A stretch of 37,965 bases of DNA from a virus, in IMG/VR virus record IMGVR_UViG_3300029876_000020, positions 1 through 37,965 of that record. One strand, written 5' to 3'. Below are positions 14,747 to 33,994 of the stretch, piece after piece. Position 1 is the stretch's first letter, and the number at the start of each line of letters is the position of its first letter. Both the position numbers and the translations under genes were made by a program. The notes under the pieces were generated by a model. That model did no database searches and was not told the DNA's origin. It was given only the letters and a program-made list of their open reading frames with translations.

Positions 14747-14827
14747 TGTCCGATTTGTCCGGAATGTCCGATTTGTCCGGAATGTCCGATTTGTCCGGAA
14801 TGTCCGATTTGTCCGGAATGTCCGTTT
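14747..14827 (+). repeat. Nine phased 9-bp units, each starting TGTCCG (18-bp unit TGTCCGATTTGTCCGGAA x4, plus TGTCCGTTT)
   Basis: Perfect tandem array. It is intergenic and ends 6 bp before the extended -10. Confidence 0.95.
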
Positions 14828-14833
14828 TTGATG

Positions 14834-14842
14834 TGGTATAAT
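14834..14842 (+). promoter_or_regulatory. Candidate late promoter: extended -10 TGGTATAAT with no -35
   Basis: TGnTATAAT consensus. The sequence at the -35 position is the last repeat unit. The genes downstream are the tRNAs and the packaging/structural genes. Confidence 0.55.
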
Positions 14843-14848
14843 GAAAAT

Positions 14849-14877
14849 GCGGTTACTGGGTGAGACACCCAGACCGC
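14849..14877 (+). promoter_or_regulatory. Strong stem-loop at the predicted 5' end of the late transcript
   Basis: GCGG-tta-CTGGGTG-aga-CACCCAG-a-CCGC. Confidence 0.5.
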
Positions 14878-15004
14878 TCATTGTGGATTCGAAAACTCCC
14901 GGCGGGAAGCATAGCACGGCGATGGAACGACGTGTTCAATGGGACATGCGCCGTCCGCTCCAAAACCCAGCGGCGCACGACACGATAAAACATTCACCCG
15001 GCGG

Positions 15005-15021
15005 GTGTCCATTGTGGACAC
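15005..15021 (+). other. GTGTCCA-TTG-TGGACAC hairpin (family copy B)
   Basis: Same 7-bp stem as at 2701, 20050 and 23126. It is preceded by TCACCCGGCGG, which also precedes copy A. There is no T-run. Confidence 0.5.
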
Positions 15022-15033
15022 ATTATACGATAT

Positions 15034-15179
15034 GCTGCCATAGCTTAGTGGGCTAGAGCGCTTTGCATCTGGTACATGCAAGGTAACATTGGCGATACAC
15101 ACCACCCATGGCTCTGCGTTTAGCCAGCGCAGAAGTTAATGCGGTGTGGGCGTTGGTTCAAATCCAACTGGCAGCACCA
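15034..15179 (+). tRNA. tRNA-like gene: Thr(GGU)-type anticodon loop, 8-bp anticodon stem, ~67-nt insertion at the variable-loop position, encoded CCA
   Basis: Acceptor stem GCTGCCA/TGGCAGC is perfect. D-arm GCTT-AGTGGGCTA-GAGC. Anticodon loop CTGGTAC (U33, A37). T-arm GTTGG-TTCAAAT-CCAAC. Ends in ACCA. Total length is 146 nt rather than ~76. Confidence 0.55.
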
Positions 15180-15243
15180 GACGCGCACCCTTTGAGGGGG
15201 CGGCGCGAATAGCGGGGCATCCGGCCGCGAAAGTTCTGGATGC

Positions 15244-15276
15244 AGCGGCCCTTCCGCAAAGGGGCCGCTTATTTTT
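15244..15276 (+). terminator. Intrinsic terminator between the two tRNA genes
   Basis: AGCGGCCC / GGGCCGCT 8-bp stem followed by TTATTTTT. Confidence 0.6.
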
Positions 15277-15278
15277 AT

Positions 15279-15351
15279 GCATCCGTAGCTCAGTCGGCAG
15301 AGCAGCGGGCTTTTAATCCGTGGGCCGCGAGTTCGAATCTCGCCGGACGCA
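15279..15351 (+). tRNA. tRNA-Lys (UUU)
   Basis: 73-nt cloverleaf. D-arm GCTC-AGTCGGCA-GAGC. Anticodon loop CTTTTAA. T-arm GCGAG-TTCGAAT-CTCGC. One A-C mismatch at 3:70. No encoded CCA. Confidence 0.85.
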
Positions 15352-15365
15352 TTGAGGTGACAGCA

Positions 15366-15722
15366 ATGACCGAATCCTTTTTACAATGGCTTCGCGGTCT
15401 GATTGCGGCGGGTGACGTGCATCCGTTCTACTGTTCTTCGCAGTGGGTTCGGCTGTCGCATGAGGTGCTGGACATGGACAAGCACGAGTGCCAGATCTGC
15501 AAGCAGCGCGGGCGATACCGGCGCGCTGACCTTGTGCACCATGTCAACCACGTCAAGGACGCACCGGACAAGGCGCTTGATATCTGGTATCAGGATGCCG
15601 GAGGCAACCAACAGCGCAACCTTATCAGTGTATGCAAGGACTGCCACGAGACAGTCTGCCACCCGGAGCGGCTGCGCAAGTGTAGGGAAGACAAACCACT
15701 AACAAAAGAGAGGTGGGATTAA
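15366..15722 (+). CDS. HNH endonuclease (packaging-associated)
   Basis: CQIC...DLVHHVNHV...NLISVCKDCHETVCH. Start moved to ATG 15366 after GAGGTGA, because the longer ORF reads through tRNA-Lys. It lies upstream of terS/terL. Confidence 0.88.
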   Translation: MTESFLQWLRGLIAAGDVHPFYCSSQWVRLSHEVLDMDKHECQICKQRGRYRRADLVHHVNHVKDAPDKALDIWYQDAGGNQQRNLISVCKDCHETVCHPERLRKCREDKPLTKERWD

Positions 15723-33924: not shown

Positions 33925-33994
33925 AAAAATCCCCTGCTTTGCCGAAGCCCTGCGTTCCACGCGAGGTACTTTGTAAGCGAAGCGGGGGATTTTT
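33924..33994. terminator. Bidirectional terminator between convergent genes
   Basis: AAAAATCCCC (33925-33934) / GGGGATTTTT (33985-33994), with an inner GCTT..AAGC extension. Confidence 0.6.

Follow-up and report, generated by a model that had tools for sequence, protein, structure and literature searches.

Comparative analysis shows the product of a 146-nucleotide (nt) gene in a viral genome to be a structured tRNA-like RNA, evidently under selection, whose conserved core is formed by a tRNA body and a large domain set into its variable region. The gene occupies positions 15034 to 15179 on the plus strand of the stretch that we analyzed (37,965 nt; IMG/VR record IMGVR_UViG_3300029876_000020, positions 1 to 37,965), which is called the window hereafter. 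It is confirmed as a real RNA gene, beyond chance. Our preferred reading, to which we give about even chances, goes further: the window would encode a member of a phage-borne family of tRNA-like RNAs that use the tRNA fold as a scaffold, do not decode, and have the extra domain as their working part. Such a family is described neither in Rfam 15 nor in the papers that we searched for the motif, for phage tRNA-like RNAs, and for long variable arms. One published list of some 10,000 candidate viral RNAs mentions tRNA-like candidates, and the passages of its main text that we consulted do not contain this architecture. The element is composed of the following parts.

15034 to 15179, plus strand: tRNA-like RNA gene, 146 nt including the encoded A73-CCA; matches Rfam RF00005.
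15034 to 15040 with 15169 to 15175, plus strand: acceptor stem GCUGCCA/UGGCAGC, 7 of 7 positions paired, followed by discriminator A (15176) and CCA (15177 to 15179).
15043 to 15059, plus strand: D arm with a 4-base-pair (bp) stem, GCUU/GAGC (15043 to 15046 with 15056 to 15059), and loop AGUGGGCUA, which includes G18 G19.
15061 to 15083, plus strand: anticodon-like hairpin with an 8-bp stem (15061 to 15068 with 15076 to 15083) and the 7-nt loop CUGGUAC (15069 to 15075).
15084 to 15151, plus strand: region of about 65 to 70 nt that replaces the variable loop.
15086 to 15098, plus strand: single-stranded motif ACAUUGGCGAUAC, whose last C (15098) starts the closing helix of the extra arm.
15090 to 15093 with 15123 to 15126, plus strand: pseudoknot strands, UGGC with GCCA.
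15098 to 15148, plus strand: rod-like extra arm made of a closing helix, an irregular middle segment, and an apical hairpin.
15098 to 15103 with 15143 to 15148, plus strand: closing helix CACACC/GGUGUG.
15113 to 15118 with 15128 to 15133, plus strand: apical hairpin stem UCUGCG/CGCAGA.
15119 to 15127, plus strand: apical loop UUUAGCCAG, with the conserved A-R-C-C-A at 15122 to 15126.
15152 to 15168, plus strand: T arm GUUGG-UUCAAAU-CCAAC.

Inspection of the sequence confirms that the stems, the loops, the T arm, the A73-CCA end, and the two insert helices all lie where the original prediction had placed them. U8 and A9 are also present, and the element has the expected hallmarks of the tRNA fold (a cloverleaf, G18 G19, a UUCRANY T loop, G53-C61, and a sufficient model score). 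The original prediction had proposed runs of Rfam and ARAGORN, which gave a divided result. The Rfam tRNA covariance model matches positions 15034 to 15176 with 44.0 bits, compared to a gathering score of 29 (E = 2.6e-6 for the whole window), and 84 nt of the element occupy the place of 15 model positions. Default ARAGORN made no call, and its intron mode forced an unconvincing “tRNA-Gln(ctg)” with a 49-nt intron. Its transfer-messenger RNA (tmRNA) mode called nothing, and a permissive Rfam scan of positions 14800 to 15400 (E ≤ 10) found no ribozyme, riboswitch, T-box, Y RNA, tmRNA, or intron family. These outcomes agree with the earlier statement that the insert, at about 65 nt, is too short for a group I intron and that a tmRNA-like open reading frame (ORF) is lacking. 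The plus strand of the element is more stable than its shuffles (z = -2.06) and the minus strand is not (z = -0.61). Folded alone, the extra arm gave z = -2.29, the same value that was obtained for the anticodon-like hairpin.

Relatives of the element came from environmental and genomic sequences. A search of INPHARED matched only the neighboring tRNA-Lys and revealed no annotated phage relative of the element. In IMG/VR, 13 loci, a few of them belonging to one contig, carry the element with 99.3% identity, and one more carries it with 85%. The motif that starts the insert recurs in a second, unrelated-looking tRNA-like gene on some of these contigs. Pattern scans that combined this motif with the T loop yielded 55 IMG/VR stretches, about 40 true metagenome matches, and four genome contigs, which belong to Butyricicoccus, Agathobaculum sp. 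Marseille-P7918 (two), and an Oscillospiraceae metagenome-assembled genome (MAG). More divergent members came from relaxed scans. Discarded as false positives were marine matches (Ga018...) and loci L115, L123, L133, L160, and L173, which proved to be either coding sequence or the 3′ half of a tRNA-Met preceded by GGCGATAC repeats. The family then totaled 57 distinct sequences at 116 loci from gut phages, metagenomes, and prophages, and the hosts of its genome-borne members are Clostridia. None of the family members tested was called by ARAGORN. A search of IMG/VR for the insert domain outside a tRNA frame did not find it, and returned only chance matches in coding sequence, plus the Agathobaculum prophages. 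Where needed below, sequence types are designated by letters, with the window copy belonging to type A, and individual loci by L numbers.

All types have in common the acceptor, D, and T arms with the nucleotides for tertiary interactions, the motif, and an arm of about 50 nt. The motif, ACAUUGGYGAUAC, begins 1 to 5 nt after the anticodon arm. It is identical except at Y in the first nine types aligned, and later members have up to three substitutions. Its last C pairs with a G located 2 to 3 nt before the T stem and so closes the arm, and the apical hairpin loop of 7 to 9 nt contains A-R-C-C-A in every member. The window carries all five family features (tRNA arms, motif, closing helix, A-R-C-C-A loop, and Y-R complementarity), which were defined from the 57 sequences. 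Although the sequences of the arm helices differ among types, the architecture is the same in 18 sequence types, and unconstrained folds of most members give a five-way junction composed of the cloverleaf plus the extra arm. A shuffle test in which ARCCA was held fixed, and which demanded that a terminal closing helix coexist with a hairpin that presents ARCCA, returned p = 0.0004 to 0.1 for individual types and about 1e-22 when the 18 types, which are not fully independent of each other, were combined.

The motif and the apical loop also pair with each other. When RNAalifold was applied to a plain MAFFT alignment of the 18 types, it recovered the acceptor, D, anticodon-arm, and T helices and, unprompted, a helix between UGGY and RCCA. 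In these types, the first pair is U-A in 17 and U-G in one, both G-C pairs are present in all 18, and the Y-R pair is C-G in nine and U-A in nine, with none broken. The later members L219, L247, and L250 likewise fit UGGC/GCCA. Related tRNA bodies differ in their Y-R state (types A and C, with a common T arm, and type B and L013, with a common acceptor stem), and therefore the switch between C-G and U-A occurred at least two times. Because the UGGY × RCCA helix crosses both arm helices, the domain is pseudoknotted. Its geometry is probably sterically ordinary for an H-type pseudoknot, since RCCA on the 3′ side of the loop could stack on the hairpin stem, with 2 to 4 loop nucleotides left to span a 4-bp helix. 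Two other partners were considered and rejected. The 3′ NCCA of the element itself does not suit UGGY, because Y mismatches the discriminator (C opposite A73 in the window and opposite C73 in D types), and pairing of the motif with the T stem is inconsistent across types.

Covariation was counted across 18 diverse members on the cloverleaf plus pseudoknot. In this set, 98.2% of cells are paired and 16 of 25 pairs show double-sided changes, for a score of 0.684, compared to 0.211 in shuffles (none of 500 as high) and 0.05 to 0.21 in slid controls. The acceptor stem has double-sided changes in 7 of 7 pairs (99.2% of cells paired) and the T stem in 3 of 5 (100%), the D stem being invariant or changed on one side; the acceptor, anticodon-arm, and T helices covary across the 18 members. 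Within types, substitutions spare the motif, the loop, and the closing helix, and the type-B T stem shows double changes from U-A to C-G, a pattern that indicates purifying selection. The check for homologues and covariation that the original prediction had proposed therefore came out strongly in favor of a conserved RNA. The “novel extra arm” that it had listed among several options is real and conserved across the family. The 13-nt motif, its pairing with the apical loop, and the lack of conservation in the “anticodon” hairpin had escaped notice.

This last hairpin is the part that the family does not conserve, with stems of 5 to 8 bp and loops of 3 to 7 nt across the family. Among the 13 near-identical loci, 11 read CUGAUAC (triplet GAU) rather than CUGGUAC (GGU), a difference of A versus G at “anticodon” position 35. 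Type A′ has the same stem as the window type with a triloop, the D types, which come from cultured or MAG genomes, combine 6-bp stems with the loops GAGC, GAUGU, or UGAUC, and L247 has a 6-bp stem with a 6-nt loop. The earlier “Thr-type” assignment of the window copy does not hold up against these sister types and the GAU of most near-identical copies. Seven-nucleotide loops are present in 15 types. Their triplets at positions 34 to 36 are UUU, GUU, GGU, GAU, GCU, and once CCA, and U36-A37 is kept in 14 of the 15. Position 33 is A in 10, C in one, and U in four. U33 makes the U-turn and is near-universal in tRNAs. The loops thus often resemble those of ANN-reading tRNAs, yet the U-turn nucleotide has been specifically replaced. 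The window's family does not show what would be expected of a decoder, namely, a 5-bp stem, a 7-nt loop with U33 and a purine at position 37, and a conserved anticodon. Taken together, A33 and the lengthened or truncated arms speak against decoding as the conserved function. For the window copy, tRNA geometry makes normal decoding unlikely from the 8-bp helix alone.

Two side observations concern tRNA identity in these phages. The D-type members L113 (2268 to 2403), L114 (minus strand), and L117 (minus strand) carry an eighth acceptor pair, G-1:C73, followed by CCA, and have no anticodon loop. Bacterial tRNA-His is characterized by G-1:C73, which is its main identity element for histidyl-tRNA synthetase. 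In relatives (L047, 1616 to 1691, and L002, 2567 to 2641), the tRNA in the Trp position has anticodon CTA, called “Pyl” by ARAGORN and a possible amber suppressor, and the tRNA in the Met position reads AAT. The slot is therefore subject to changes of anticodon, of which GGU and GAU in the element are another case.

Under our preferred reading, the transcript would be matured like a tRNA. RNase P would cut the leader at AUAU|G, and the 3′ end would be trimmed or receive CCA. Nearly all types have an A/U-rich leader that ends in AUAU before G+1, which suits RNase P. The product would be a stable L-shaped RNA that does not decode, given that the anticodon helix of the window copy is 3 bp too long and that U33 is changed to A in most sister types. 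Its tRNA body would provide the scaffold and a handle by which tRNA-binding factors recognize the RNA, and the pseudoknotted extra domain would be the part under selection. Made from a tRNA slot at the head of the packaging and late gene block, the RNA might act in trans as a decoy, sponge, or inhibitor of a host factor that handles tRNAs, such as a tRNA-targeting defense nuclease, although by analogy we hold this role with low certainty. It is favored here because the gene is accessory cargo, because the Lys-, Asn-, Thr-, and Ile-like loops overlap the targets of the defense nuclease AriB, and because some defenses cut variable arms. The original prediction had included a tRNA-derived regulatory or decoy RNA among its options. 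A tRNA-derived RNA is compatible with our data, and the unconstrained anticodon arm favors one that does not decode, whereas the decoy role follows by analogy only.

Several points weigh against this reading. The arm helices were aligned separately for each sequence, and thus their 100% pairing holds by construction, leaving the shuffle test as the fair control. The case for the pseudoknot is based on one covarying pair and three invariant pairs. Many members have a regular 5-bp stem and a 7-nt loop, and L125, L144, and L250 also have U33, such that some members could still decode. Maturation and stability of the RNA are proposed from its likeness to tRNA only. A decoy or anti-defense role is plausible purely by analogy, and no co-occurring defense system or partner protein was seen in the neighborhoods examined (±6 kb). 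Moreover, the variability of the anticodon arm means that the family as a whole cannot function as a decoy for an anticodon nuclease. Finally, a terminator usually comes after the element just upstream of the terminase genes, which allows for a role in cis in late transcription.

A related proposal, which we hold tentatively and consider less probable than the preferred reading, is that these RNAs represent a new class of phage noncoding RNA in which a self-processing, stable tRNA body presents the pseudoknotted domain and serves either as an inhibitor or decoy or as a charged, non-decoding carrier. In the first version, the RNA would block a host enzyme directed at tRNAs, either a defense nuclease or a toxin that modifies 3′ ends. 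In the second, it would be aminoacylated but kept off the ribosome, carrying its amino acid to a non-ribosomal reaction. The bases kept in the anticodon-like loops are those read by the synthetases for lysine, asparagine, threonine, and isoleucine. The carrier version fits because the loops keep these synthetase-read bases without U33 and because the D types carry the tRNA-His-like G-1:C73 pair.

The surroundings of the gene bear on another alternative, that it is a cis element of the late or packaging operon, acting either as a tRNA-shaped leader that RNase P or RNase Z would cut so as to define or stabilize the mRNA downstream, or, jointly with the hairpins and terminator on its 3′ side, as a termination/antitermination switch. 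We regard this as unlikely. The flanking features are as follows.

14747 to 14842, plus strand: putative promoter region with nine TGTCCGnnn repeats (14747 to 14827) at an exact 9-bp spacing and an extended -10 element, TGGTATAAT (14834 to 14842).
15007 to 15023, plus strand: palindromic hairpin GUGUCCAUUGUGGACAC, 10 nt 5′ of the mature end and within the exchanged cassette described below.
15180 to 15277, plus strand: structured trailer with hairpins H1 (15182 to 15207) and H2 (15217 to 15243) and an intrinsic terminator (15244 to 15269) plus T-run.
15278 to 15352, plus strand: ordinary tRNA-Lys(UUU) called by ARAGORN, Rfam 66.3 bits, in the same tRNA slot.

Family members are invariably found on the late-gene strand, typically just 5′ of terS/terL or inside the structural block, as would be expected of a cis element. 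Type B lies directly upstream of a different terminase in 39 of 56 loci, and the L113 member sits between portal and capsid genes. A terminator often follows, including the intrinsic terminators in the window, at type-B loci, and at other type-A loci, and H1 is 71% complementary to the terminator arms, such that an alternative pairing (attenuation) is conceivable. However, close HNH-terS-terL relatives lack the element and carry plain tRNAs instead, which argues that it is dispensable for late expression. Near-identical cassettes are also present in unrelated contexts, including the middle of tRNA arrays (members of L097, L126, L013, L219, and L247 lie inside such arrays), and the module of trailer and terminator also follows ordinary tRNAs. 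Furthermore, a processing signal acting in cis would need no conserved pseudoknotted domain. No protein gene is common to the neighborhoods of all types, the recurring ones being only terminase, portal, and replication genes.

The same loci point to mobile cargo. Close relatives of the window HNH protein were found in 57 loci, nearly all of which have tRNA-Met and tRNA-Trp (some also tRNA-Lys) upstream of HNH, and only four of these (L001, L030, L013, and L025) contain a family member. The cassette, from about 14958 or 14990 to 15252, is 95 to 97% identical where the flanks are 73 to 82% identical (L030, L146) or cannot be aligned (L058 to L067). These comparisons indicate that the gene is an accessory cassette exchanged horizontally among phages, in the tRNA slot upstream of the packaging genes. 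Between the putative promoter and the element lies a leader of about 190 nt, which at approximately 14945 to 14985 retains a remnant of the 5′ half of tRNA-Trp(CCA) (..gcgccgtccgctCCAaaaccc..), a truncated homolog of which is present in L061 and L068. It seems that cassette insertion eroded older tRNA genes, related phages having an intact pair of tRNA-Met and tRNA-Trp at this place.

The putative promoter corresponds to the “late promoter” of the original prediction, of which the extended -10 element with upstream repeats was found; the -35 box is absent, and for that reason a promoter scan gave no entry there. Its repeats and extended -10 plausibly resemble an activator-dependent, perhaps late, promoter. 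Relatives have other repeat units at the same position, such as GACCGnnn in L064. An upstream ORF of 150 amino acids was considered as a late activator and dropped, as it matches no family.

The hairpin at 15007 to 15023 is followed by the A/U-rich leader ending in AUAU and is kept 5′ of every A and A′ copy, unrelated flanks included. Its palindrome GTGTCCAnnnTGGACAC recurs in L069 (about 1610 to 1640), where flanking A and T runs resemble a bidirectional terminator, and in L077, where it lies 3′ of a type-B element with a T run. Within these tRNA slots, the palindrome apparently serves as a portable module, either hairpin or terminator. On the 3′ side of the element, the order is two hairpins, the intrinsic terminator, tRNA-Lys(UUU), and the HNH-terS-terL genes, with the tRNA-Lys confirming a normal neighbor noted earlier. 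The trailer gave a fold z of -2.22 and is kept in related loci by compensatory changes, including in H2. Spacers of this type (H1 GCGCACCC..GGGGGCGGCGC, H2 GCAUCCGG..CUGGAUGC, and the terminator) are reused between different tRNA and tRNA-like genes, as in L077 upstream of type B and in L067 after tRNA-Trp.

A slightly less probable alternative than a cis element is that of a functional elongator tRNA bearing an oversized variable arm, charged by the host synthetase as Thr in the window and as Ile in most copies and then used on the ribosome, with the arm perhaps shielding it against nucleases directed at the variable loop or the anticodon. The tRNA core is intact and CCA is encoded, the loop CUGGUAC has U33, GGU, and A37, and altered-loop phage tRNAs are known counter-defense tools. 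In Escherichia coli, the identity elements for threonyl-tRNA synthetase are G1-C72, C2-G71, G35, and U36, all of which are present in the window element. The members L125, L144, and L250, which pair U33 with a regular stem, count on the same side. Nevertheless, an anticodon helix of 8 bp in place of 5 would shift the anticodon relative to the acceptor end, and near-identical copies swap GGU for GAU with nothing else changed. The A′ triloop, the 6-bp stems and 4- to 5-nt loops of D types, and the replacement of U33 by A33 in 10 of the 15 types with 7-nt loops also speak against decoding, and conservation is strongest in the insert rather than in the anticodon loop.

We find it improbable that the block of about 65 nt is an intervening sequence, removed after transcription by self-processing or host enzymes to leave a tRNA of ordinary size. 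It is one discrete block within an otherwise normal cloverleaf, its 5′ edge is conserved, its closing helix joins both ends, and the intron mode of ARAGORN does yield an “intron” call. However, excision would leave the window type, A′, and the D types still without a usable anticodon arm, and the residual variable loop would be 5 to 7 nt depending on type, so that no precise junction is conserved. The block is far below the size of group I and group II introns, no Rfam ribozyme or intron matches at E ≤ 10, and the junction lies in a 14-nt single strand rather than in a bulge-helix-bulge. Among the Pfam and PHROGs matches of the submitted window ORFs, there is likewise no RNA ligase or splicing endonuclease. 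The last alternative, a decaying tRNA pseudogene with a random insertion, draws on the rejection of the element by default tRNA finders and on its aberrant anticodon arm, but is refuted by the recurrence of one architecture in 57 distinct sequences at 116 loci, with no more than three substitutions in an insert motif conserved throughout, compensatory changes in every helix class, and 99% identity across phages with diverged flanks. The suggestion of a tRNA disrupted by a small insertion falls on the same grounds, as no other part of this widespread family is as well conserved as the insert, whose helices covary.

The window phage has a temperate, siphovirus-type genome. Its products with Pfam or PHROGs matches include an integrase, a helix-turn-helix (HTH) repressor, SSB, ParA, ParB, HNH, and the small and large terminase subunits, as well as a portal, a ClpP-type protease, a tail fiber, and a GH25 lysin. 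The matches of the submitted ORFs include no nuclease, CCA-adding enzyme, or synthetase-like protein, in addition to the ligase and splicing endonuclease mentioned above. A second structured RNA candidate lies at 33928 to 33991 (plus strand), between the lysis region and an HTH gene, where the Rfam DUF3800-VIII RNA matches over its full length with 68.8 bits (cut-off 40.2). Some phages carry two family members. In L061 (1826 to 2228) and L068, a type-A and then a type-B member stand in tandem about 100 nt apart, and L065 has two different members about 1 kb apart, which suggests a possible importance of RNA dosage or diversity. In L219, near 860 to 930 (about 15 to 85 nt downstream of the member), there is a second tRNA-like gene of 68 nt, GCCCTTGTAGCTCGGATGGTAGAGCAAGCGCGAGCGCAATTGTCGGTGGTTCGATTCCACTCAAGGGC, with normal acceptor, D, and T arms, a short GC hairpin as its anticodon arm, and no insert. 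It may be that these phages more generally carry tRNA mimics that lack an anticodon.

Phage tRNA genes are now viewed as weapons over the host tRNA pool, and the characterized examples are decoders of ordinary size. Our comparisons suggest that gut phages also keep and exchange tRNA-derived RNAs that lack a conserved anticodon arm, many of them probably non-decoding, and that carry a pseudoknotted domain of about 65 nt. Neither Rfam nor the papers searched contain a comparably large, sequence-conserved structure at the variable-region site. If the domain binds a host factor, these RNAs would represent a new type of RNA-based counter-defense or host manipulation and a natural example of the “tRNA scaffold” principle of RNA engineering. 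Standard tRNA finders miss these genes, which are consequently absent from virome annotations, and the motif permits finding them. The cultured lysogen Agathobaculum sp. Marseille-P7918 has two copies, which makes experiments possible.

Comparison with known systems excludes several classes. Group I and group II introns were rejected because the insert is about 65 nt (versus at least about 200), lies in the variable region instead of the anticodon loop, and has no Rfam intron match. An archaeal bulge-helix-bulge intron was rejected because the 5′ junction is in a 14-nt single strand, the 3′ junction ends a 6-bp helix, and the hosts are Clostridia. Theta ribozymes, which are hepatitis delta virus (HDV)-like, are structured RNAs directly 3′ of tRNAs in tRNA arrays of gut Caudoviricetes (PMC10879173), and the trailer at 15180 to 15277 is likewise directly 3′ of a tRNA-like gene. 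An HDV-like or theta identity was nevertheless rejected for the trailer, because it forms three independent hairpins of which the last is the terminator, leaves 1 nt for P2, and has a P1 without a G-U pair; Rfam at E ≤ 10 gave no HDV-family match in it. Viral tRNA-like structures are also tRNA mimics, and the element lacks their defining features.

Other systems resemble the element in part. The T-box discriminator pairs UGGN with NCCA by the same 4-bp rule as UGGY × RCCA, including covariation of the last pair. The pairing in the element is intramolecular and has the opposite strand context, with RCCA located in a hairpin loop 5′ of the stem strand, whereas the T-box pairs with a free tRNA 3′ end, and the likeness may be coincidental. 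Moreover, the Y of the element (C) mismatches its own discriminator (A73), and Rfam gave no T-box match. As in tmRNA, an acceptor/T-arm module is combined with pseudoknots inserted between two tRNA-like halves. Unlike the element, tmRNA has no D stem or anticodon arm, measures 260 to 400 nt, and encodes a tag peptide. The element types share no conserved reading frame, and no tmRNA match was found in Rfam. YrlA RNAs, some of which are phage-encoded, are non-decoding mimics of the acceptor, D, and T parts in which another module replaces the anticodon function. They end in a Ro-binding stem and their acceptor-like stem is closed by a loop, whereas the element has an open acceptor stem with CCA and bears its module in the variable region; it has no YrlA or Y RNA match in Rfam.

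Class II tRNAs (Ser, Leu, and bacterial Tyr), tRNA-Sec, and allo-tRNAs likewise place an extra variable-region helix on an L-shaped core, and in tRNA-Sec and allo-tRNAs the anticodon and acceptor stems are also lengthened (PMC7609411). These known variable arms are simple hairpins of 10 to 25 nt without conserved sequence, whereas the element has about 65 to 70 nt with a 13-nt single strand, a three-tier rod, and a pseudoknot. In place of the single 10- to 25-nt hairpin and 3-bp D stem of class II, it has 68 nt and a 4-bp, class I-like D stem. Moreover, the anticodon loop appears to be dispensable in the element family, unlike in class II tRNAs, tRNA-Sec, and allo-tRNAs.

A further comparison concerns the tRNAs that phages use against host defenses. 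AriB of the PARIS system targets Lys, Thr, and Asn tRNAs, and the corresponding tRNAs of phage T5 neutralize it (PMC12409363). Septu (PtuAB) and retron-Eco7 cut the variable arm of tRNA-Tyr and are countered by the tRNA-Tyr of T5 and T6 (PMC13096335), and changes in the anticodon loops of phage tRNAs have been proposed as nuclease evasion (PMC10264068). Like these tRNAs, members of the element family are accessory genes in tRNA slots, and both deviate from host tRNAs in the anticodon loop and the variable arm, which are sites read by nucleases. The loops of the element family resemble those of the ANN-reading tRNAs (Lys UUU, Asn GUU, Thr GGU, Ile GAU, and Ser GCU), a set that overlaps the targets of AriB. 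The anti-defense tRNAs are normal-sized, decode, and replenish the pool, whereas the element family bears a large added domain and many of its members are probably non-decoding.

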